DNA of 52,532 bases, the filler included, from Squatina squatina (Eukaryota): assembly GCA_031763465.1 (NCBI GenBank). It is 3 parts of 3 records of this genome, joined end to end, with 100 filler letters (N's around TTAATTAATTAA, not from the genome) between each part and the next. Parts side by side here need not be neighbours in the genome. Positions count along the whole stretch, not along the records: positions 1 to 25,205 come from JARFOE010000057.1; 2 more parts are not named here. One strand, written 5' to 3'. The notes below the pieces were generated by a model that was not told the DNA's origin, did not search any database, and saw only the letters and a program-made list of their open reading frames with translations. Below, one piece after another: positions 11,950 to 48,016 of this stretch. Numbering within the stretch: position 1 is the stretch's first letter; each line of letters starts with the position of its first letter. Both the position numbers and the translations under genes were made by a program.

Positions 11950-12700
11950 CCACAACTCTCAGTTTTGTTCCCCATTCTCTCTCCTTTTCAACCTCTCACA
12001 TTTTTTAGCCCTTATTTATCGGATAGAGAATCATTTCCCCTTTTCTCTCAAATAAAAACTGTTTCTCCGCCTTTGTCTACTATAGTCTCTCTTTCCCCTT
12101 CTCACTCTTGTACACACACTGTCTCTCCACCCTCCCTCCCTTTCAGACTCTCCCTCATTCACATGCTCAGTCTCTCACAGAGTCTCACTCTATCTCGCAA
12201 ACAGATTCTCTGAGACACTCACACAGACTTTCAGATCCACTCTCACACTGCTTCTGAGTCTCGCTCTCTCTCACTGACTGTCACTCATTCAAACACTGAC
12301 CCTGTTAAACACACTCTCACGCTCACAACCAGCATCTCACTCTTAACTACTGACCCTCTCAGACTCACCCTTACACAGACACACTGTCACACTCTGAGAC
12401 ACACTGTCACACACAGACTTTCAGATTCACTCTTACACAGCTGCTGAGTCGCTCCCTCTTTCACACTTAAACTCTCTGAGACTCACTCTCATACAGACTC
12501 TGTGCTAAACGAACTCTCACACACAACCAGAGTCTCGCTGTCACACACTGACTCTATCAGACTCGCTCTTTGACTGTCTCTCACACACAGACTCATTCTG
12601 TATCTCTCATTATTGTACTCAGCCGCTTGGTCCCCTCTTTTATGCACAGATTCTCTCTCCCATCTCTTGCACAGACACCGACTTTGCACCTCCTCTCTCA
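11950..12700. repeat. CT/CA-rich low-complexity repeat
   Basis: Repeated ctctcacac and acacagact motifs. Confidence 0.7.
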
Positions 12701-14084
12701 GACATCCTGATTGGTTCTCCCTTTGTTGTGGTATTCGGTGCAGCTACGAAGTGCCGGTGGTGGTGTGAGTGAATGTTTAGGGTGAATGTTTAGGGTAGTG
12801 GCTGTGGTGCTGATCAAGCGAGCTGCTTTGTCCTGGATGATGTGGAACTTCTAGAGCGTTGTTTGAGCTGTACTCAATCAGGCAAGTGGAGAATATTAGC
12901 CTGGATTTTCTACTTAACTTTCTGGAGCGGGGCTGAACACACAACCTTTATGATTCTAGAATCGAGAGAGTGGTACCAATGTGCCAAGGCTGACACCGAG
13001 CACTTCAAAACAGTCCTTAATCCATCCGTCCCCTAACCCGATGTGTCTTTCTTCCACAGGAGAACTCATGCTGGAACTTCCAGGAAATTTGCGAAAACCG
13101 GACTGGAGTTGAAGAAATGTTCTGGAGAATACTTGCGTCTGACTGGAAACCACTTTGGATGATCACAGGGCCGGACACACTGAGACAATTTGATGAGACT
13201 GTGAAAGATGTCAAGTGAAATCAGGGAGCTGGTGAGCAATGGTCTGAAGGTAACTGGGCTCCCCGGGGTAAGGGCTACTCTGTTCAGGGAGCTGTTTGAA
13301 AGGAAGGGGAACAGTGTGGGGAGAAATTTGGCTCCAGACCGGAGACAGAGGTTTTGCGTTACTGGGAGTTGCTCAGAGTGGAGAAGGGTTGGAAGTGGTT
13401 CCCCGGGACTCATTGCCGGCACCACATTTCCTCTCCATGTACACAGACTGTTCGGATTTGGGAATCAGGAGCACAATCTCAACATTTACTGAGGGCACAA
13501 AAGTTGCAGGTTTGACGGTCAGAAACGAGACTGTAAATGTGTTCAGGTAGACATTCTGTAGAAAGAAGAAATCAAGCTGGCGCTCAATTATTTTGCTCTT
13601 TAATTGTTATCCTCTAGTAACTGACTCATTAAAAACTGGGAATAGTGTATTTCTCAGTTACTTCAATAAAACCGCTTCAAAATTTTGAACCCCTCTATCT
13701 GATCTCCTTTTCCACTTCTCTGCTCTTGAGAAAAGTTATGTGAAGACTTTCGTCGTTGGGATGATCTCAGTGAATCTCATCTGCACCTCTCCATGGCCTT
13801 GACATTCTTTTTAAAGTAATGCATCAAAAACTGGACACAATATTCTGACACTGGCCTAACCAATGATATGTCCATGTGTAGCATTAACTCTGCTTTTATA
13901 CTCTCTGCCCTTATTTGTAAAGCATTGGATCCTGTATGAATTTTTGTAAACCAGCTTTATCAACTTGCCTCCCACTTTGAAAGATTTGTGTATCTGAATC
14001 CCTGAATTCTCCGCCCCTGTACTCCCTTTACAGTTTTTCATATAGTGTCTATTTCTTCTACTTATTCTTCTCACCTCACATCTC

Positions 14085-15982
14085 TTGTTGCATTGGATCA
14101 AGAGGAGGCCAGCCAGCCCCTTGAGCTTATTACACAGGAACAGGAGGAGGCCATTCAGCCCCTTGATCATGTTTCATAGGAACAGGAGGAGGAAATTCAG
14201 CCTATTGGGCTTGTTATGCAAGAATAGGAGGAGGCCATTCACCCTCTCGAGCTTGTTACATAGGATCAGGAGGAGACCATTCAGCCTCTCATGCTGGTTA
14301 AATTAGGAACACGAGCTGGCCATTCAGTCCATTTCGGCTGTGACATGGGAACAGGAGGAGCTTTTAGCCTCTCCTGTCATATAGGAGATGGAGAAGACCA
14401 TTGAGCCACTCGAGCAGGTTAGATAGGAACTGGAGAGGCTATTTATCTCCTTGAGATTGTTACACATGAACAGGAGGCCATTCAGCCCCTCAAACCTGTT
14501 ACATTGGAATAGGAGGATGTCAATCAGCCCCTCAAACCTATTATATTGGGACTGGAGGAGGCCATTCAGCTCCTCGAACTTGATACGTGTTAACAGGAGG
14601 AAGCCATTCAACCCCTTGAAACTGTAATATTTGAACAGGCAGAGGCCATTCAGCACTCAAACTGTTACGTGTTAACAGGAGGAGGCCGTTCAACCCCTTG
14701 AACCTGATACGTGTGAACAGGTGGAGGCCATTCAGCCCCTCGAACCTGACACGTGCTAACAGGAGGAGGCTGTTCAGCCCCTCGAACCTGATACATGTTA
14801 ACAGCAGGAGACCGTTCAGCCCCTCGTACCTGACACGTGTTAACAGGAGGAGGCCGTTCAACCCCTTGAACCTGATACGTGTGAACAGGCGGAGGCGATT
14901 CAGCCCCTCGAACCTGACACGTGTTAACAGGAGGAGGCTGTTCAGCCCCTCGAACCTGATACATGTTAACAGGAGGAGGCCGTTCAGCCCCTCGAACCTG
15001 ACACGTGCTAACAGGAGGAGGCCATTCAGCCCCTCGAACCTGATACGGATTAACAGGAGGAGGCTGTTCAGCCCCTCGAATCTGATACGTGTGAACAGGA
15101 GGAGGCCATTTCGCCCCTCGAACCTGATAAATGTTAACAGGAGGGGACCAATCAGCCCTCGAACCTGATATGTGTTAGCAGGAGGAGGCCGTTCAGCCCC
15201 TCGAACCTGATACGTGTTAACAGGAGGGGACCAATCAGCCCCTTGAACCTGATACATGTTAACAGGAGGAGGCCATTCAGCCCAGGGCCTTTAACATTAG
15301 AAAAATGAAATAAAGACTTCCCAGACCACCGGACGTCTCAAAGCGATTTACAGCCAATTAGGTACCTTTTGGAGTATAGTCACCGCAGTAATTAGGAACA
15401 GGAGAAGGCCATTCAGTCCCTCGGGGTTGTTGCATAGGAACAGGAGGTAGCCATTCATCCCCTCAAACCTGATATACAGGAACAGGTGGAGGCCATTCAG
15501 CCCCTTAATCCTGTTACATGGGAACAGGAGAACACTTGTCAGCTCCTTAAGCTCCTTGCATAGGAACAGGAGGAGGCCTTTCAATTCCTTTGGGCCTGTA
15601 TCATTAGGAACAGGAGTAGGTGTATTTGGCCCCTAGAGCCTGTTAGACAGAAAGAGGATGAGGCCATCCAGCACCTGGAGTTTGCTAGATAGGAACAGGA
15701 GGCGGCCATTCAGCCCCTCAAGCCTGTTTCATTGGAACAGGAGGAGTGCATTCAGCCCCTGAAGCCTGTTGCATCAGAACAGGAGGCGGCCATTCAGCCC
15801 CCTCGCGTTTATTACATTAGGTACAGAAGGAAGCCATTCAGCATCTTGAGTCCGTTTCATTAGCAACAGGAGGAGGCCATTGAGCCTCTACGGGCGTGTA
15901 ACACAGGAATAGGAGGAGGCCGCATAACCCCTCCAGCTTTTTAAAATTAGGAACAGCAGCAGACCATTCATCCCCTCGATCC
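14085..15982. repeat. ~42-bp minisatellite derived from a CR1/HER1 LINE 3' tail
   Basis: Core unit GTTAACAGGAGGAGGCCGTTCAGCCCCTCGAACCTGATACGT; ORFs repeat every 14 aa; homogeneous core at 14670-15285; array resumes at 17236-17345. Confidence 0.92.
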
Positions 15983-17235
15983 TATGATGACGACATGCAA
16001 GCAGTGATTCTCACCAATGGCTCAACCACAGGCCCAATTCAATTGCATACTGGGGTCAGGCGAGGCTGTGTCATTGCACCGACGCTTTTCTCCATCTTCC
16101 TCGCTGGAGCACTCCATCCCATCTCCATGAAGCTCCCCACTGGAGTTGAGCTAATCTACAGGACGAGTGGGAAAGTCTTCAACCTCCGCCGCCTCCAGTC
16201 CAAATCCAAGATCACCCCAACCTCTATGATTGAGCTGCAATTCGCAGACGACACCTGTGTGTGCACACACACGGAGGCTGATTTCCAATCCATTGTCAAT
16301 TTATTCACTGAGGTATATGAGAGATTGGGACTCACACTGAACATCCACAAGAAAAAGTTCCTAAACCAGCCATACACCACCAATTCGCAAATATCAAGAT
16401 CCACGGCAAGCCCCTGGACAACGTGAAACACTTCCCATACATTGGGAGCCTCCACTCAGCAAGGGCAGACATAGACGACGAAATCCAACACCGCCTTCAG
16501 TGTGCCAGCACAGCCTTCGGTTGCCTGAGGAAGAGAGTGTTTGAAGACAAAGACCTCAGACCCAGCACCAAGCTCATGGTTAGCAGGGCAGCAGTCATAC
16601 CCACCCTCCTGTATACATCGGAGATATGTTCACTGTACAGCAGGCACCTCAAAGCAGTGGAGAAATATGACCACTTCTGCCTCCGCAAAATCCTGCAAAT
16701 GAACTGGTAGGATAAATCCACCATCATCAGCGTTGTCTCTCAGGCCAACATCCCCAGCATCGAGGCACTGGTCACGCTCAGCCGACTGTGATGGGCGGGT
16801 CACATTGTCCGCATGCCTAACTCAAGACTCCCAAAACAAGCACTGTATTCCGATCTCCGTCATAGCAAACAGCTCCGAGGAGGGCAGAGGAAACACCACA
16901 AGGACATCCTCAAAGCCTCATTGAAAAAATGCAACATCCCCACCAACTCATGGGAATCTCGGGCCCAAGACTACCCGCAATGGAGGAGAAGCATTGTGAA
17001 GGCACCAACCGCTTTGAGCATCTCCGGTGGGAGCACATGATGGCCAAGCACAGGAAGTGGATGCAGCGCATGGAAACAAGAGCATCCCATCCTCTCGCCC
17101 CGCCAAATACCACCTGCCCCACCTGTCGTCGATTTTGCAGATCAGCATTGGACTTTTTAGCCATCTCAGAACCCACAACTCCAGAGTGGAAGCAAGTCAT
17201 CCTCGAACCCGAGGGACTGCTGAAGAGGGAGAAGA
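15983..17235 (+). mobile_element. RTE-clade LINE, 5'-truncated RT fragment inserted in the minisatellite
   Basis: TGVRRGCVIAPTLFSIFL, YRTSGKVFNLRRLQ, ELQFADD, HFPYIGS, RLPKQALYSDL...GGQRK, C-terminal CPTCRRFC. Confidence 0.9.
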
Positions 17236-17343
17236 GTGACATGGGAACAGGAGGAGGCCCTTCAGCCCCTCGAGCAAATTACTTATGAACAGGAGAAGGT
17301 CATTCAGCCCATCGAGCCTGTTACACAGAAACAGGAGGAGGCC

Positions 17344-17437
17344 ATCGTTCACAAACATGTTCCTGATGCTCATGGCCTTGGAGGAGATGCCGGTGTCGGG
17401 ATGAACCTGCTTCATCACTTTGTAGATGTAGATGGTA
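17344..17437 (-). pseudogene. Histone H2B fragment
   Basis: [31 protein letters not shown] matches the H2B core; both termini absent. Confidence 0.88.
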
Positions 17438-17439
17438 CA

Positions 17440-18050
17440 GTATGTGAGTGAGAGATTCATTCTGTATCTGCCAGTAAATCCTACCGTGCCTGAGTGTGTA
17501 TGCATCCCGTGTCTGTCAGTCCCTGCAACTCTGTGTGAGTGTGGGATTCATCCTGCATCTGTAAGACCCTGCAACTCTTTGTGAGTGAGGGATTCATCCT
17601 CTATCTGTCATTCCCTGCTACTCTGTGTGAGTGTGGGATTCATCCTCTATCTGTAAGTCCCTGCTACTCTGTGTGAATGTGGAATTCATCCTGTATCTGT
17701 CAATCCCTGCTACTCTGTGTGAATGTGGGATTCATCCTGTATCTGTCAGTCCCTGCAACTCTGTGTGAGTGTGGGATTCATCCTCTATTTGTAAGTCCCT
17801 GCTACTCTGTGTGAGTGTGGGATTCATCCTCTATCTGTAAGTCCCTGCTACTCTGTGTGAGTGTGGGATTCATCCTGTATCTGTCAGTCCCTGCTACTCT
17901 GTGTGAGTGTGGGATTCATCCTGTATCTGCCAGTCCCTGCTACTTTGTGTGAGTGTGGGATTCAGTCATTGTCTGTCAGGCCCTGCTACTTTGTGTGAAT
18001 GTGGGATTCATCCTGTATCTGTCAGTCTCTGGGACTGTGCTAGTGTGTGG
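17440..18050. repeat. 46-bp minisatellite, about 12 copies
   Basis: Unit CTCTGTGTGAGTGTGGGATTCATCCTGTATCTGTCAGTCCCTGCTA; GATTC recurs at 17821 and 17867. Confidence 0.92.
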
Positions 18051-18294
18051 AAATCATTCAAACAGAGGCCCAGGGGAGCATCAGAGCACCGGACCTGTGG
18101 CGCAACACTGCGAGGTGGTGGGGATAAAGAGCGGTGACGGCAGGGAGCTAGGCAGAGGTGCAGTGGAGTGTTGAACCTGCGGAGGAACACTGCGAGGTGG
18201 TGGGGATAAAGTGTGACGAAGGCAGGGAGCTGCACAGAGGTCCAGGGGAGCATCAGATTCACTGAAACCAGCGGCGGAGCTCAAGATGATGCCA

Positions 18295-19160
18295 CATTAG
18301 GCAGGCTAAGTGAATGTGCAAGAACATGGCAGATGGAATATAATGTGGCAAAATTTGAAGTTATCCATTTTGGTAGGAAAAACAGAAATGCAGTGTATTT
18401 TTTTAAATGTTGAGAGACTGGGAAATGTTGATGTCCAAAGGGACCTGGGTGTCCATGTTCACACGTCATTGAAAGCTGACATGTAGGTGCAGCAAGCAAT
18501 TAGGAAAGCAAATGTTATGTTGACCTTTATTACAAGAGGATTTGAGTACAGGGGTCAAGATGGCTTCCTGCAATTAAGTGCTGCCTTGCTGAGACCGCAC
18601 CTGGAGTATTGTGTGCAGTTTAATCTCCTTACCTAAGGGAGGATATACTTGCCATAGAGGGAGTGCAACATAGGTTCAACAGACTGATTTCTGGGATGGC
18701 GGGATTGTCGGTTGAGGAGAGATTGAGAAGATTAGCCCTGCATTCTCCAGAATTTCGAAGAATGAGAGGTGATCTCATTGAAACATACAAAATTCTTACA
18801 AGGTTTAACAGGATAGATGCAGGAAGGACGCTTCCCCTGGCTGGGGGATCTAGAATCAGTGGGTCACAGTCTCAGAATAAGGGGTAGGCCGTTTCGGACT
18901 GAGATTAGGAGATATTTCTTCACTCAGTGGGTGGCGAATATTTGGTATTGTCCATCCCAGAGGGCTGTGGAGGCTCAGTCATTGAGGATATTCATGACAG
19001 AGATTGATAGAATTTTAGATGTTAAGGGAATCAAGGGATATGGGGATAGTGCAGGAAAATGGCGTTGAGATAGAAGATCAGCCATGATCTTGTTGAATGT
19101 TGGACTAGGCTCGAGGGGTCGAATGGCTACTCCTGCTCCCAGTTCTTATGTTCTAATGTC
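18295..19160 (+). mobile_element. CR1/HER1-like LINE 3' fragment
   Basis: RLSECARTWQMEYNVAKFEVIHFGRKN, FRRMRGDLIETYKIL, tail gaatggctactcctgctcccagttcttatgttct. Confidence 0.9.
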
Positions 19161-20972
19161 TGTAAGGAGTTAATGTAATGTTAATTTTTTGTTAATGTGC
19201 AGATACATGTTTGTTCACCGTTCTTGAAATCTGATTTGCGGAAAGCAGCCCTGACACTGAGGAAATCTTCCTTGTGTGTCGCCACTTGAAGAGGTGGGCA
19301 ATACTCTATTTAAATATTGAGGTTCTGGACCTGACCACCAGGATTTTTAAAGAACAAAACAATAGAACAATAGAAACCCACATGGTCAGCGATAGAATTC
19401 AATTTTCTTCGAGCAAAAACTCAAATTTCAATTGGACTGCATGGGAATAAGAATCGGAAACACAGAATCCATGTCTCAATGATATCCCCGAACATATTGT
19501 GATTCTGGAAGCAGAGTTGGTCAGTAACCAGAGAAGGAAAATCACAGGAAATGGACAAAGGAAGAGTAAAACAATTTACTGTCAGAACAGCTATTACATC
19601 ATGTCATCCGGGAAATCAATGAGGTTTGGGTCTGTGACTAAACAGTTTTTGGTTTTGTTTAACATTCTGAATATTCTGGCTTGACATCAGGCTGGGGCTT
19701 TACGCCTTGACTTAATTTGTAATATTTACCTCATTTGTGAATTGCAAAATAAAATTGGCAAATGTTTACATTTTGTTACCGGGGCAACAATTAAAACACT
19801 CAAATAGTTCTTGTGTCCAGGTAAACATGTGTCACTAAAATAGCTTATCTGATGACATCTTATTGATGTTTCAATGCACCGGAACACAATTGTACTTCTG
19901 CTGTTAAAATTAGTGAAAAGAAAATGAAGTAGTATTTCATTGGAATTTCATTGTGTCTCCATACAATGGAAATATAGAAGAGAGAACGAGACTCCCATCC
20001 CTATGCCAGCTTTGTTGCCGGTTGTTGTATTGTTGCTCAATATCTTCTGGCTGTATTTCAATTCGAGCACTGATTCTTCATCAAAGATTTTCTTGTGTGA
20101 AAAGGAATGTACATTCCTGAGTCAGGAGACAAGTGGGGGAGGTAAAGATGGGGAATTTATTCACTTGCCGAATCCCCACGAGCTCCTCACTCTGTATTAC
20201 CCTGAACACTTTACAACTACAGCTGAGCAGAAACATCTGACTGCATCACGTGACAGCTCACCCTGCCTCTGAACTGGAATCTGACAAAAGGGATGATGGT
20301 GCAAGACAGAAGGAGATGGTAATGGGGCAAGTTAGGAAATAAAAGGTGCATCTAGCTCGGGTGTCACTGGAAAATTCATCAAGAGCTGCCACGGGAAAGA
20401 GAGACAAAAACAAAAAAAATAGGGTCAGATGTTACAGTCTGAAATTGATGAGCTCGATGTTGAGTCCAGAAGGCTGCAAAGTGCATAACCAAAAGATGAG
20501 GGGCAGTTCCTCGAACTTACATTGAGCTTTATTGGAACAGCGCAAGAGGCTGTGGATGGAGAGATCAGAGTGTGAGTGGAGGGGAGAATTAAAATGACCA
20601 TCCATTGGAAGATCAGGATCATGTTCACCGACCGAACGAAGGTGTTCTGGAAAGCGGTCACCCAATCTGCGTTTGGTCTCCCCAGTGCAGAGGAGACGAC
20701 ACCATGAGCAGAAAATACATTAAGTCCTTTTGAAAGAAGTAGAAGTAAATCGCTGTTTCACCTGGAAGGACTGTTTGGAGCCCTGGACAGTGGGAAGGAG
20801 GAGGTAAAAAATAAATGATCACATGTTCAAAACTAATTAAAAGACACTTTAATTCAGCAGTTGAAAACAAAAATTTAATTTTTTGAAAGATAAATTGCAA
20901 CATTTTAAAATGGCACAAAATTTACGTAAACTAATTTTAAATGTACGTTTGGAAGCGAGCGGCTGATGAGAG
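18300..20972. repeat. Copy 2 of the duplicated block
   Basis: Same order of elements and shared non-TE sequence as 8370-10967. Confidence 0.9.
20425..20790 (-). mobile_element. Penelope-like GIY-YIG fragment (paralog of 10430-10790)
   Basis: GDRFPEHLRSVGEHDPDLPMDGHFNSPLHSHSDLS...TLQPSGLNIELINF. Confidence 0.85.
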
Positions 20973-20973
20973 G

Positions 20974-21170
20974 TTTTTTTTATGTCAATCAGGCCGTGAG
21001 GGCCGGGTCACATGTGTAACATTTTTCCCCTTATTTAAACCAAATTAAACTAAAACACAAAAAAACAAATTAAATCAAAACCACTTTTTCCCCATCAAGG
21101 ATGCACTCCAGTCCCCCCGGCGTCCACCAGCTGCGGAAGGCCACAAGCGTGCCGGTGGACACCGCGTGCT
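20974..21170 (-). mobile_element. Tx1-clade LINE, very short 3' fragment with poly(A)
   Basis: T-tract followed by the same 3'UTR/ORF2 end as the adjacent copy (gtcaatcaggcc...caaggatgcactccagtc). Confidence 0.8.
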
Positions 21171-21183
21171 GGCTGGTGAGAGA

Positions 21184-22532
21184 TTTTTTTTTTATATTCA
21201 CGCGTCAATCAGGCCAGGAGGGCCAGGTCATTTGAATGATATTTTTTCCCCTTTTTTAAAAATCAAATCAAACCAAAACACACAAAACACCAAATTAAAC
21301 TAAAACCTCATTTTCCCCGTCAAGGATGCACTCCAGTCGCTCCGGTGCCCACCGGTCGTGGAAGGCCTCGATCGTGCTGGTGGACACCGTGTGCTCCCTC
21401 TCCAGTGACACCCAAGCGCGAACATAGGAGCGGAAGAGAGGCAGGCAGTCTGGACAAACGACCCCCTCGGTCGCCCTCTGCCTGGACGTGTTAATGGCCA
21501 TTTTGGCCAGGCCCAGGAGCAGGTTTACCAGGACGTCCTCCAAACGCCTCGCTCCTCCCAGCACCGGGAGCCCATATATCAGGAGCGTGGGACTGAAGTG
21601 CAGCCAAAATTTGAGGAGCAGCCCCCGCAAATATTCAAAGAGGGGCTGCAACCTCACACATTCGACATACACGTGGAACACGGACTCCCAGAAACCGCAG
21701 AAATAGCAGGCGGCCTGGGAGTCCGTGAACCAGCATAAAAGCTCCTTGCACGGGACTGCTCTGTGCAACACCCTCCAGGCCAAGTCCCCGATGGAAATTG
21801 GGAGGACTCCCGCATAGAGAGACCCCCACCGGGGACTCTCGCCCCCCCAGATGGAAGGATGGCATGCCACGGCGTGTCCTGGTGGCAGGCGAAGATGACA
21901 AAATGGAAGGTGTGCAAGAGCAGCCCGTACAGAAAAACCCTCTGCGCAGAACTAAAGGGCACAGAGGGGTATTCATGGAGGCGGCTCAAGTTGTGAGGTG
22001 CCGGCCACCAAGGGAGGTTTGGGGGCATGGCGCCAATGAGGAATTCTGTCCGAACTGTGGTAAGATCGGACAGGATGGCCCCACGTGCTTGGGCCTCCTC
22101 CATGCACAGAGTGCAGTCACGGCCCAGGGACATCATCAACGACTCGATGGCTTCGGCCGCTCGCTGGACGCTCGTCCTGGGCAGGCGACGTGACAGCTCC
22201 TCGGGCAACACCCAGCCTGCTCCTCCGCCAGCGAGGACATCCCTGACTCTAGTCACCTTGGCAACCACAGCTACACCTCTCCATCGGCCACTCCAACCCG
22301 AGGTCCTGGAAGTGCGGATTCCCGAGCAGCAGCTCGTGCACGACAGCCGCCTCTCCCGACGGGGGAGAACTGCACCTGCAGGCGACCTTGTTGCGAACCC
22401 ATAGCAGTTCCTGGTAAATGACAGGCAGCTCCCACGGGCGAGTCCTGCCGCCCAGGGTGACAAACAGGAGCTGCGAGTCATAGTTGAGGCCGTGCAGCTG
22501 GCGGAAGAAATACGTCGCCAGCGCACACCATC
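21184..22532 (-). mobile_element. Tx1-clade (L1 group) LINE, ORF2 C-terminal region, 3'UTR and poly(A)
   Basis: GDLAWRVLHRAVPC...CYFCGFWESVFHVYVEC (zf-RVT), NLLLGLAKMAI; T-tract at 21184-21193. Confidence 0.85.
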
Positions 22533-22632
22533 NNNNNNNNNNNNNNNNNNNNNNNNNNNNNNNNNNNNNNNNNNNNNNNNNNNNNNNNNNNNNNNNNNNN
22601 NNNNNNNNNNNNNNNNNNNNNNNNNNNNNNNN

Positions 22633-25497: not shown

Positions 25498-26656
25498 CTG
25501 AAAACAAAGGGAAAACGTACCAATCATTTTTTTTCCCCCCAGTGAATAAAAACAAGCAAGCTAATACCTGGCAAAATTGAACCACCTTAAAGAAGCGAGG
25601 TGTTCTGATAGCTTACCAAACCACAGGAGCATTATCAGAGCCCTAAGCAGCAAACCTGTGGTGAGTAACGTACCACCTTTGGCAACAGTGAACGCACAGG
25701 ATCAGTCACCAGATGGCAGGTGTGTTTATCCCTCCACCTCCTATCCTTCAACGTTTCTTTCACTGCTGTTTCCTATCCTGCGTACTACTTCCTCATCTGT
25801 GCATTTTATTCCCTTTTAAGACTCAATTCCTCAAGCTCTAAATTTGGGTAAACCAAAAAAAATGAAGGAGACAAATTTAAGCACTTTCTTGTCCCAGTCC
25901 AATTCNNNNNNNNNNGTGTTGGCTGCCCCTACCCTCGAGACAAGGCCTTAAGGAGTGGGCATTGTATTGGAGTAGAATGGAAACTGCTTTCGTCAGCCAC
26001 CAGTAGTTCAGTCATTACCCCACCATGGCTGGGCTGTGTACTTATATGGTACATGTTGCTTCTGTATGAATTCTACTTGTCTACAGATGTGGCATCACAA
26101 CAACCACAGATCACTTTCACTGTGCAAAATGAGATTTTTATTCTCTTTTTATCCAATCTTGTTATCCAGAATTAGAAATAAACTGAAGCCATAAATCATC
26201 TTTCTCACAAGACAGGTTTGGATGCGGATGGTCCTTTGGCTGATTTGATATTCTTTCAGAACACCAACCCTCCCTTTACAGTGTCCAACTGTTTACGAGA
26301 TTCCAATATCGTGTCCTCGCCTATCATTCCTGGCAACAGGCTCCATCTGTTCATTAGCCTCTGTGTAAAGAAATACTTACTGACATCTGATTAAACTTGT
26401 TCTCCACAACCCTAAACCTGGCTTCTCTTGTCCAGCTGCTCTGACATATCTGAAAGAATTGTTCCGAGTTTATTTCCTCTATCCTATTAGATAACTTGCA
26501 TACCTCCAAGATTCCTTCTAAGATACAAAAGCGAAATACTGCGGATGCTGGACTCTNNNNNNNNNNNNNNNNNNNNNNNNNNNNNNNNNNNNNNNNNNNN
26601 NNNNNNNNNNNNNNNNNNNNNNNNNNNNNNNNNNNNNNNNNNNNNNNNNNNNNNNN

Positions 26657-32595: not shown

Positions 32596-33644
32596 TAAGG
32601 TTCCTTGATGATTATCCCTGGCAGAACTATTCCTTTCCCGGAGGTGGTGAATTGGCCTGAGGTTGGGTTTGGTCTACTTGCAGACTTCTACCTTGCCTAA
32701 GTAGTTACTCATGAACCTCGTCTCTCCTGTCTGGACCTGATACCCATGTTTGTTTCTACCGGTTGCTGGGCAGTCTGTCTTTAATTCCTCCTTAATCTGG
32801 GGTGCTAGGACTAATTGTGATGTGCCCCCACTGCATCCCTGGCTGACATCAGCTAACTGAGTCCACTGGAATCTTTCTCACCAAAACTACCCAAAACCAT
32901 TTACCTGCAATCTTGTGCTATAGAATTGTCCTGGTTTTGAATACAAAGTCACTACCATTCTCAACAGATATCTCTGCTCTGTACAGTCTTTTGAAATTGC
33001 TTAACAGAAGTGTTTTAGTGATATGCTGAATTATGGTTTGTGTCTTTCCTCCAATTTGCCAGGTTAGCCAATTAGTTATCTCTTGGTATGCCCTGGGCAG
33101 CCTCTGGTTTCTATTTTTTTTTTTAAGTTGACCTTTGGTATGCCCACTGCTTCTAGGCCTCAAATGACTGTGTATTTGGCAGCTCTCTGATAGGCATCCA
33201 AGTGGAGATGGAAGTAAGAGTGGAACATGAGGTGAAGTTTGTGTATTTGCGTAGCTCGGTGCCTGGGATTTGCTGGTAGTCTGGCTCCTGTTTGTAGGTT
33301 TCTTTACTTCAGAACTTCCACGCTCAAATTATTCTAGTGACATTGAAATATCTCTAATTCCCCTTTGATTTGAATAATTAGAAATTTAGGATAAGGCTTA
33401 TGATGGGTCATATGACAATCATGGCAGTGATTAGTCAGATTTCTGAATTTAGGTTTCATAAATGCAAATTTAGTTTTTGTGTTAAACGAAGCAGTTCTAG
33501 AAATCCTGCATGGCTAGTTTTTCATANNNNNNNNNNNNNNNNNNNNNNNNNNNNNNNNNNNNNNNNNNNNNNNNNNNNNNNNNNNNNNNNNNNNNNNNNN
33601 NNNNNNNNNNNNNNNNNNNNNNNNNNGTGTCTCTCCCATTTCAG

Positions 33645-33874
33645 TCAAATACAGCTGTACCAATTGTGAAAAGAAATTTAAACGCTCAAGTGGCCTACGC
33701 AGACACAAGCGGATTCATGCCGCTCGGGTGTCTGAGTGGGCATGTCCAATTGAGGATTGCAAACTGAATTTCAGAGCTGCCTTTAACTTGGAACATCATA
33801 TCCGAAAAGACCATTTCAAGGTCCTTGAATACCAATGCCACTTCCCAGACTGCCAGAAGGCTTTTACTATGAAA
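33645..33874 (+). CDS. C2H2 zinc-finger exon of a p43 (42Sp43)/TFIIIA-family 5S RNA-binding protein
   Basis: ag|..KYSCTNCEKKFKRSSGLRRHKRIHAARVSEWACPIEDCKLNFRAAFNLEHHIRKDHFKVLEYQCHFPDCQKAFTMK|gtaagt; finger spacing matches fingers 7-9 of the TFIIIA family. Confidence 0.8.
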
Positions 33875-34339
33875 GTAAGTATTCCGAGCCTGGAAAGCGA
33901 GTGAAATTAACAACTGCCCCTCTCTTCCTCAATTCCTTTTCCTACACTTGGTATTGAGGGTACTTTTTATGGCAGTCATGGGGAGGGAGTTGGTTGAAAA
34001 CAGCATTTTAAAACCAAGCAGATCGATTCTTTGATTCATAATCTTATTTAGATTTTGAGACAGTGGAGGAGTATTGAGGCTGTGAAATGTGTTTCTGAAG
34101 TTGATCATTGAAGCAGAGACCATGTCAACATTTAATAGGATAGATAGGTAGTTGATGGAAAATGAATAAAGGGCTATGTTAACAGGGCAGGTGCATGGAA
34201 TTGGGACTACTGCATTGGAGGATAAATATCTATACAATTAGTTGGGCTGCATGGCCAGTTTCTGTATTATTGCTATGTCTACTATGTTGCTCAGGAACAG
34301 GCAATAAGTTGCCATATGAACAGATTCATTCATTTCAAA

Positions 34340-41686: not shown

Positions 41687-42282
41687 TTACGTAAAACGAT
41701 CAGAGTTCATTTTCCTCAGTTTGGGAGGAAGGTTTCCCTCAATCCTTGAACCACCTGCTAATCTCTGTAGCTTTGGTGGCAGGTCAGCCACAGACTGGCT
41801 CATTGGGTCACAGGCCACCTTACTGGTCTTTGGCACCAATTTTTCCTCAGAATTTCCAGGAACTGAGCTGATTCGTTGGAGCTTCAGAGGCAGATCACCC
41901 ATACTATATGCTTTTTCTGAGGTGGTAGAACTCATTCTTAGCAATTTTTTTGGTAGGTCTTCCCTCCCTGTGATCTTCTGCAATTTCAGTGGTATCCTGG
42001 TACTTAGGTCATCAAGACTATCGAAGCAGTCCACAGAATCATTTCTATCTGGTATAATGCCTCTGCTGTTGTTAACAGCTGGGGCCATCAAAGGAGAGGA
42101 CATGAACAGCATTTCCTCTTGTTCTTTCACACTGTATGGTGGTGTTGGAATTTCAAATGTTGCATGAAATTGTGAGTAGTCTACTTTGAAGAATCCTTCT
42201 TCCAGAGAAATAACTGGGAAAAAACGATTACCCCAAAGAACTTCATCTTCTGTGTATGATGTCCTAGCTTGGCAAGTCATGC
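41687..42282 (-). CDS. KCNJ3: G protein-activated inward rectifier K+ channel 1 (GIRK1/Kir3.1), last exon
   Basis: ag|[44 protein letters not shown]...[14 protein letters not shown]. Confidence 0.96.
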
Positions 42283-43721
42283 CTAGAGGAAAAATACAAA
42301 TGTAAATAAATAATTCTGTCAGAATTTAAGCTAGACCTGAAATATATATTGTACAATATATAATGCTATATATATATATTACATATAGATATATATATAT
42401 AGCATTAATCTGATCACTTGATGCTTAAAATTCAATGGGCAGGTAATTGCTAACCACTATTTAAAAGTCAAAAACTAGGCATCTAACTACCATTCCATCA
42501 TCAACATTGGCCCTGAAATTGCAATCGGAGGCTTCCTGCGTGCGGAGGCCTCAGATGGCAAAAATATTTACGTACTTACCTGACAGTCCTTGATCCACGT
42601 GACCTTGCGAGTTTGAGCCCCCCCCACCGAGTTGGAGATTCGGAGTGAGACTCTGTAGATTCCTGGAGAAGTTCAGCAAACAGGCTGGAGGTCACATGGG
42701 AGGCCCCAACCAATCAGGTAGGAGTATCTTTCATTTAAGTTTTGACAGTTCTCACAGAACTGTCAAAACATGAATGAAAGATGAAAAGCAACAGAAACAC
42801 ATCCGAAAACATTAAAAAAAACTATTCTAACATTAAAATTTAATAAAAAGGAAATAAATAAGACAATTCTTTTTTGAAATTTAAAAAAAAATCTTTAAAA
42901 ATGTTTAAAAACATACTTACCTTACTGGGAATGGTTTTAAAGTNNNNNNNNNNNNNNNNNNNNNNNNNNNNNNNNNNNNNNNNNNNNNNNNNNNNNNNNN
43001 NNNNNNNNNNNNNNNNNNNNNNNNNNNNNNNNNNNNNNNNNNNTATTGATAAAATGAGCTGAGAAGCATCTGAACCAAGCCACATTTGGGCATTGGCAGA
43101 ATTGCCCAGTTTCTGTGGCTTGTATCATTAGCATCAAATGCAGCTTGTTCATTAGACTTTCGTGGTAGTAATTCTCTGTTAACTGGTGCCGAAAATCTTT
43201 CAGCTTGTATAAGGTACAATCCATTTTCATTTTAATTCCCTCGCTACAGAATTTCTTGATAAATACCATCAATGGAAGACATTTCACATATTATTTGTGT
43301 AAAAAACTGAACATTTCTTAATGAATCTCAATTTGCTTTGTGATGCATACTAAGCAGAGGATTTGAAAATGTATTTCATTATTAAAAGACTCCTGTAAAA
43401 AGCTGCATATGTGGCTTTAATAATTATGGAGTATTGCTACCAAGGCTGCATAATGACATGCTGATTACAGCTTTCAGAATACTGTAGAGATGGTGCAAAC
43501 TGCAGGGACAGAGCTCATATCATGGGGTTTCTGTGAGGATTTAATACAAGCTGATGCACTCAAACCACAATATACATTTTCTGTTGAATAAATTACTAAT
43601 AGGATCGAAATTGGCTCCCGCNNNNNNNNNNNNNNNNNNNNNNNNNNNNNNNNNNNNNNNNNNNNNNNNNNNNNNNNNNNNNNNNNNNNNNNNNNNNNNN
43701 NNNNNNNNNNNNNNNNNNNNN

Positions 43722-47674: not shown

Positions 47675-48016
47675 GGACCAATCGGGTCCGGCCAGCAGTA
47701 CTTCCCGTGGATCCACGTGGAGGACCTGGGTGGGATTATCGCGCACGCGCTGGAGCGCGGGTCAGTGACGGGCATACTGAACGGGGTGGCTCCCGCCCAG
47801 AACACCAACGGCGAGTTCGCCAGGGCGATGGCAGCCAGCCTGAGGCGACCGGCAGTGCTGCCCCTGCCATGGTTCGCGGTGCAGGCGGTGCTGGGTGCCG
47901 AGCGAGGGGTCATGCTGCTGGAGGGCCAGCGGGTGGTGCCTGAGCGCACTTTGCAGAGCGGCTACAAGTACCGCTACCCCGTGCTCCGGGCTGCCCTGGA
48001 GGACATCGTGTCCTGA
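47675..48016 (+). CDS. SDR39U1: Epimerase family protein SDR39U1, last exon
   Basis: GPIGSGQQYFPWIHVEDL...GILNGVAP...LLEGQRVVPERTLQSGYKYRYPVLRAALEDIVS*; AATAAA at 48290-48295. Confidence 0.93.
   Translation, partial: GPIGSGQQYFPWIHVEDLGGIIAHALERGSVTGILNGVAPAQNTNGEFARAMAASLRRPAVLPLPWFAVQAVLGAERGVMLLEGQRVVPERTLQSGYKYRYPVLRAALEDIVS

Follow-up and report, generated by a model that had tools for sequence, protein, structure and literature searches.

How did two pieces of one LINE family come to lie head to tail at a single site, with the same short word in front of each? The question is raised by 52,532 nucleotides from Squatina squatina (assembly GCA_031763465.1; three parts joined end to end with filler, hereafter the window), in which one copy of a duplicated block runs into the word, a T-run and two successive Tx1-type fragments, and the other copy passes through the same word uninterrupted.

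The tandem and its empty counterpart

Along the + strand the order is flank, word, T8, short copy, word, T10, long copy and assembly gap (Table 1). The short copy opens with T8 (20974-20981), followed by a 189-bp reversed LINE end; in its own sense it holds the final 32 codons of ORF2 (21073-21168), a T-rich 3' UTR and an A8 tail. In the long copy, about 410 codons remain from the C-terminal end of ORF2. They encode a CCHC knuckle of the form CX2C-X7-H-X4-C (CYFC-X7-H-X4-C) and contain two frame breaks (one near 22280-22306, one near 21852-21855); 402 codons are free of stops. The 3' UTR of this copy has 8 extra nt ahead of the tail compared with the short copy, so that the two termini differ. 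The fragments meet in a tail-to-truncated-head junction with the 13-mer inside it, and the block homology stops where this word ends. Because the 5' junction of the long copy falls in the gap, its outer TSD is unseen. An earlier note on this DNA had read the same anatomy, namely word, poly(T), a ~200-bp Tx1 end, word, poly(T) and a diverged Tx1, and every coordinate checks.

Table 1. Features of the double insertion and of its empty paralogue (window coordinates).
Feature	Position	Strand	Basis and details
Block A of the 2.6-kb duplication, stops at the empty site	8364..10967	+	self-BLAST and alignments versus block B
Empty target GGCTGACGAGAGA, uninterrupted, then TGAGATTCC	10955..10967	+	alignment, exact pattern match
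CpG-rich promoter-like stretch, after block A only	10967/10968..11450		G+C 0.57 (57%), CpG o/e 0.71
Block B of the duplication, stops at the insertion	18298..20973	+	self-BLAST and alignments versus block A
Outer (3'-side) target-word copy GGCTGATGAGAGG	20961..20973	+	GGCTGATGAGAG at 20961-20972, plus G; exact pattern match
Short Tx1-type copy, 5'-truncated	20974..21170	-	197 bp; alignment, codon analysis
Middle target-word copy GGCTGGTGAGAGA, separates both elements	21171..21183	+	GGCTGGTGAGAG at 21171-21182, plus A; exact pattern match
Long Tx1-type copy	21184..22532	-	A10 tail (T10 at 21184-21193); reaches the N-gap at 22533
Assembly gap	22533..22632		100 N; covers the long copy's 5' junction, outer TSD and right flank

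The two blocks (8364-10966 versus 18298-20972) are 84-87% identical (83.8% and 82.5% by self-BLAST), and their homology ends at the word. In the block alignment, the empty copy continues past the word as TGAGATTCC and the filled copy enters the T-run. The nick is therefore placed after GAGAGA on the + strand, where the homology to the paralogue ends; there is no T-tract at this inferred position in the empty site, which belongs to a paralogue that is 15% diverged. The target copy inside the tandem junction is retained and agrees with the empty site. The pattern GGCTGRYGAGAG has three exact matches within the window (10955, 20961 and 21171) and one further match with 1 mismatch at 25987, where 0.61 would be expected by chance with 1 mismatch allowed; an 11/12 match at a fixed place has a chance of 1.7e-6. 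The DNA to the right of the gap has no match to 10967-18297 besides two short repeat matches, so the paralogy of the empty site is confirmed for its left half only. Within that limit, the claim of the earlier note that an empty paralogous word lies at 10955-10967, upstream of a CpG-rich region, is confirmed. Matches to YY1-, CRE-, NRF1-, CCAAT-, GC-box- and SBS-like motifs occur in this region (10968-11450), and an Rfam scan of it gave no RNA gene. Just downstream of the empty site, two motifs that we take to be SBS/ZNF143-like are arranged as an inverted pair of 19 nt with 31 nt between them (11020-11088).

Block A consists of what we take to be a CR1-type 3' part, unique DNA, a Penelope-type fragment and an AT-rich stretch. 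Block B was also considered as a giant TSD, rejected because the block order is wrong, and as a 3' transduction, rejected because the block ends in poly(T) and not in poly(A). Other repeats are found in the window: a decayed 42-bp satellite (14040-16000 and 17230-17345, homogenised in 14617-15240), broken by an RTE-type LINE fragment at ~15990-17230 (RVT_1 match); a separate 46-bp array (17408-18143); and a second small duplication of 225 bp (11470-11694 versus 13864-14085, 86%). Elsewhere lie an exon with C2H2 zinc fingers (33629-33904, Pfam zf-C2H2), whose finger spacing is presumably that of TFIIIA/p43-type 5S RNA-binding proteins, a single long open frame of more than 480 hydrophobic residues on the - strand (76-1533, no Pfam match at E 0.01), the C-terminus of an inward-rectifier potassium channel (41687-42325, - strand, IRK_C) and an epimerase-type C-terminus (47675-48016, + strand, DUF1731).

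The element and its copies in a relative

Between them, the two fragments show features of the Tx1 clade: A8 and A10 tails, 5' truncation and a C-terminal CCHC knuckle. This assignment, already made in the earlier note, is supported by protein similarity, a profile match and a C-terminal tree. The ORF2 tail is 56% identical to the ENA protein P0001, 35-41% to sea-turtle proteins and 29-32% to teleost proteins, several homologous proteins being named 'Transposon TX1 uncharacterized 149 kDa protein', and its profile match to P0192 has a probability of 99.9. Full-length relatives (P0160, P0015 and P0016) carry APE, RT and zf-RVT domains; the RT end is present in P0001, where zf-RVT gives a sub-cut-off match, and zf-RVT has no match in the window's ORF2 piece. 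In a FastTree phylogeny of the C-terminal region, the ORF2 tail, P0001 and the turtle proteins form one group (1.0), sister (0.98) to a teleost group with BAC82603, BAC82605 and BAC82609. We take these three to be KibiFr1, KibiTn1 and KibiDr1, the agreement with the literature being in species only. The tree is midpoint-rooted and comprises the window tail and 53 of 292 proteins, 136 of which covered the region (selected proteins plus one in five of the remainder, to which C-terminal stretches of 620 residues from some long proteins were added), with no identified Keno, Dewa, Mutsu or Tx1L sequence and no named L1-clade outgroup. Judged from its sequence, the element, seen in its C-terminal part, qualifies as a Tx1-clade LINE. 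Searches found no longer homologue of P0001 and no matching solved structure. Tx1 repeats are on record for whale shark and Callorhinchus.

Further copies were sought by protein query (none in metagenome, prokaryote-genome and viral contigs), by alignment query (none in genome and viral contigs) and by 3' UTR pattern (no true copy in metagenome, prokaryote-genome and viral contigs). Fourteen pattern-matched loci were rejected as chance, their likeness being limited to the 21-24 pattern bases. Copies are instead seen in the contigs of four sequencing runs of one study (X1-X4; 7-14% of sampled words in common with the window), which were aligned to 19200-22532 at 80% likeness and may thus mix subfamilies. 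These contigs come from a close relative, since their flank pieces differ from the window by only ~4-6%. From X3, the contig of record 23 runs through flank, word and poly(T) at 20818-20980 with 10 differences and no gap, and that of record 24 spans the short copy, the middle word and the 3' end of the long copy (20984-21246), at about 90-94% identity for the two. Because these two contigs from a relative cover the tandem, it is not an assembly artefact: the tandem is real and old. No loose contig end was found at either poly(T) among the 24 of 979 rows listed.

Stacking is not confined to this locus. Three other head-to-tail junctions, at 21244 (X1 and X4), 21405 (X2) and 21422 (X4), are seen among the joints (15 of 29 listed) and the rows of intervening letters (12 of 18 listed). 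Each passes from an internal ORF2 or UTR position through other letters and a poly(T) to a new 3' end at 20974, with spacers of 11, 16 and 30 nt that each match the 12-mer in register at 4 positions. The junctions are represented by one contig per run each, displayed without the outer flanks, and we read the spacers as probable TSDs; the table of intervening letters prints spacers of up to 40 letters, which biases it towards TSD-like lengths. Compared with the window, the three spacers give no convincing match (best 9/11, 12/16 and 18/30). Random insertion would yield 0.0002-0.02 head-to-tail pairs per genome (300-3000 copies, assumed 3 Gb). Summed contig depth, which is not copy number, is 5-64 on the flank (19200-20207), 230-480 on the 3' terminus and 4,300-14,900 on the ORF2 end, and counts of distinct contigs agree with it (21-38 at 21123 versus 1-4 at 20069). 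Rough as depth is, the element is far commoner than the flank. Since the spacers at the other junctions differ and element depth far exceeds flank depth, stacking within the family takes place at unrelated loci, and the family extends beyond the duplicated unit. At a further joint (21731-22462), each of the four runs has a contig that passes over 730 bases of the ORF2 region, its shorter side being 71 letters long; it may represent a Tx1 derivative with an internal deletion.

Repeated insertion versus local duplication

The history that we favour, with a probability of about 0.55, is that an old, high-copy LINE family of the Tx1 clade inserted twice by target priming at one site, the second time on the regenerated site; a double insertion under either model of nicking that is considered here is likelier still, at about two thirds. 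The first insertion would have begun with a + strand nick after GAGAGA and with priming on the poly(A) tail in the absence of a T-tract; the resulting duplication of about 13 bp would have left the nick context intact on one TSD copy. A second RNP of the family could then have cut again at that TSD copy, giving TSD-element-TSD-element. The re-use would concern a site that is favourable locally, any sequence preference being at most a loose one for AG/AGN before the nick: because the family stacks at unrelated loci, neither a family-wide 12-mer nor the duplicated unit would be the object of re-use.

The main competitor is a single insertion followed by a local tandem duplication of ~210 bp, made of the element's 3' end, the tail and 13 bp of flank. 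The short and long copies differ by 17% (33/186 aligned sites), or 13.9% at non-CpG sites (22/158), and the non-CpG divergence of blocks A and B is 11.5% and 13.9%. Copy divergence thus equals block divergence, so that a duplication soon after insertion would also fit, being within the age that the block duplication allows. The coding-tail differences fall 8/5/5 by codon position; lacking synonymous bias, they reflect decay and not two selected lineages, and such a neutral pattern also agrees with duplication, as does the T-rich low-complexity sequence in which the unit sits. Against it, the breakpoint lacks microhomology and lies as far from the tail as a TSD would, and the termini of the two copies are 8 nt apart in length. 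At the 3/3 checkable positions (among the 40 of 933 rows listed), where all or almost all contigs disagree with one copy, a change is private to one copy and the other copy has the base of the contigs, so no private change is shared. The long copy is free of stops, which has a P of 0.02-0.045 at the 7% decay that duplication requires; this argument is weakened because, by eye, 5 of the last 32 residues of the long copy (3 in the short copy) disagree with the majority among six relatives, a sign that the long copy has decayed. Finally, the same architecture occurs at three other loci with different truncation points. One X4 contig (joint 21170-21403) agrees with the short copy as far as 21170 and from there extends into ORF2 sequence further upstream, which shows that longer elements of the short type exist. 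Taken together, a local duplication appears unlikely to us, and two events would better describe the locus. The earlier note had proposed that a ~12-bp TSD regenerated the target, which was then hit again: the TSD-like 12-13-mer is there and re-insertion is the likeliest course, but a local duplication would also account for the divergence of the copies.

A double insertion could also have come about without any re-used target word. The second nick may have fallen inside the poly(A) tail of the first copy, at a TTTT/A step as in human L1, in which case the second TSD would be about 22-23 bp long, made up of 13 bp of flank and the T-run. The sequence GAGAGA T10 ATATT provides such a step, L1-EN favours poly(T)-A junctions, and unrelated spacers of unequal length would be accounted for. 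Set against this, a T-tract is missing from the empty site at the first nick (with the reservation of 15% divergence in the paralogue), the shared AG(N) at the end of 4/4 spacers suggests a different preference and Tx1L-EN is sequence-specific and no T-tract cutter. We regard a re-cut tail as improbable.

Target choice and known systems

In all four spacers, AG stands at -2 or -3 from the poly(T); its chance is 0.134 each and 0.0024 for the three new ones, counted post hoc. These AG(N) endings hint at a loose nicking preference, and the best reading combines a loose, non-T-tract preference with renewed use of a favourable site that the TSD had restored. The earlier note had gone further, to a family specific for the 12-mer and its repeated unit. 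Such a sequence-specific family, targeting GGCTGAYGAGAG in the duplicated unit, could explain why there is no T-tract at the nick, and many Tx1 families are target-specific (PMC4494074). The left word copy also matches the Keno U2 site and the SINEU-3/Tx1-Mar TSD at 9/10 nt, and contigs aligned at 80% likeness may blend subfamilies with different targets. Yet none of the three other listed spacers carries the word or resembles it; these are tandem junctions only, too few for the published measure of specificity, one target in >20% of flanks (PMC4494074). Two copies of the target unit are present in the window and flank depth is low in the relatives, which is not the profile of a multicopy locus, and the depth of the family is far higher. 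The U2 and Mariner likeness falls to 8/10 in the other two word copies, lies 2-3 nt out of register, is by eye not apparent in the other spacers and was noticed post hoc; 9/10 likeness to the U2 site and the SINEU-3 TSD is also reached by 13 and 12 of 19,084 random window 13-mers. The word lies outside any RNA gene, and the only credible tRNA gene is 5.2 kb off. A family bound to this word is not supported and seems improbable to us: 0/3 other spacers listed carry the word, and element depth greatly exceeds flank depth.

That tRNA gene is a tRNA-Lys(CTT) at 5717-5789 (ARAGORN, Rfam); 17 further calls of a relaxed tRNA scan were judged not credible. Some 500 bp downstream of it (~6290-6355) a sequence resembles, by eye, a tRNA-Phe pseudogene with an internal deletion and has a T-run after it; neither ARAGORN nor Rfam called it. 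At the insertion site there is no U2, 5S or tRNA gene, and U2 snRNA has no match within the window. An Rfam scan at the target up to E 5 gave no RNA gene or ribozyme except a weak mir-787 match on AT-rich sequence (10877-10947), and the folding of 10940-11060 (both strands) and of the two 3' UTRs was no better than that of shuffles.

A close precedent is found in crocodilians. In Kojima 2015 (PMC4494074), tandem SINEU-3 copies that sandwich a TSD are explained by sequential insertions by Tx1 machinery, and 90% of near-full-length crocodilian SINEU-3 copies flank one transposon, Mariner-N4_AMi. The Squatina locus is alike in its Tx1 machinery and in the TSD sandwiched by the tandem, the quoted TSD matching the word here at 8-9/10 nt with a shift of 2 nt; it is unlike in being a LINE fragment with no common target among four junctions, whereas SINEU-3 is a SINE with a single transposon target. 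The SINEU-3/Tx1-Mar TSD and the Keno U2 site match each other at 10/13 positions, an observation that fits the published clustering of both groups (PMC4494074, PMC4640811). Dimers are not peculiar to Tx1: tail-to-internal dimers are described for most Drosophila non-LTR families and ascribed to double insertion by site preference (McGurk and Barbash 2018, PMC5932611). Those dimers, like the R1 tandems, join an intact 3' end to a 5'-truncated neighbour with the target site retained in the junction, as here; clades and host are different, and R1 has one fixed rDNA target.

Keno, Dewa, Mutsu and Tx1L (U2 snRNA, tRNA-Leu spacer, 5S rRNA and Tx1D, respectively) share with our element the clade, insertion without a T-tract and a word partly like the U2 site; no U2, 5S or tRNA gene lies at the site here and no fixed target is apparent. 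Keno is flanked on its 3' side by U2 snRNA from nucleotide 39, whereas the word here matches at only 8-9/10 nt and 3 nt out of register, and in place of the tRNA-Leu array spacer of Dewa there is a single tRNA-Lys 5.2 kb from the empty site. Together with the sea-turtle proteins, the ORF2 tail is sister to the teleost group with the three proteins that we take to be Kibi, which brings it near Kibi/Koshi and the crocodilian families preferring (TTCC)n/(TTTC)n. The empty site on the element strand, TCTCA/TCTCTC, also looks like a broken TC repeat, one such site being present in the window. Identity over the aligned tail is only 29-31%, and the (TC)n or (TTC)n microsatellite that Kibi and Koshi target is replaced here by a broken TC run of at most 11 nt, the other spacers not being TC repeats. 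The U2 site itself is common to Keno and Utopia (PMC4640811).

It is conceivable, though again improbable, that the family homes to its own copies, re-inserting at the poly(A)-flank junction whatever the flank and far above the rate that a loose preference would give, so that the element's own 3' UTR or tail would be the target. As part of such self-homing, the Tx1 endonuclease could have relaxed from a U2/Mariner-like TCYYATCAGC ancestor. If so, cartilaginous fishes would have a Tx1 lineage that stacks on itself.

The reading that we prefer, a second insertion into a regenerated site, invokes a known mechanism; the family is uncharacterised, and the few other junctions lend no support to a new sequence-specific target. 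Literature searches gave nothing on the target preference of cartilaginous-fish (shark) Tx1 families; Repbase or Dfam may already catalogue the family. The locus would take on greater importance only if most copies were stacked or common to one target. If the double insertion is true, it would be another vertebrate LINE dimer that owes its origin to a regenerated target, and one in which a rare empty paralogue shows where the nick lies.
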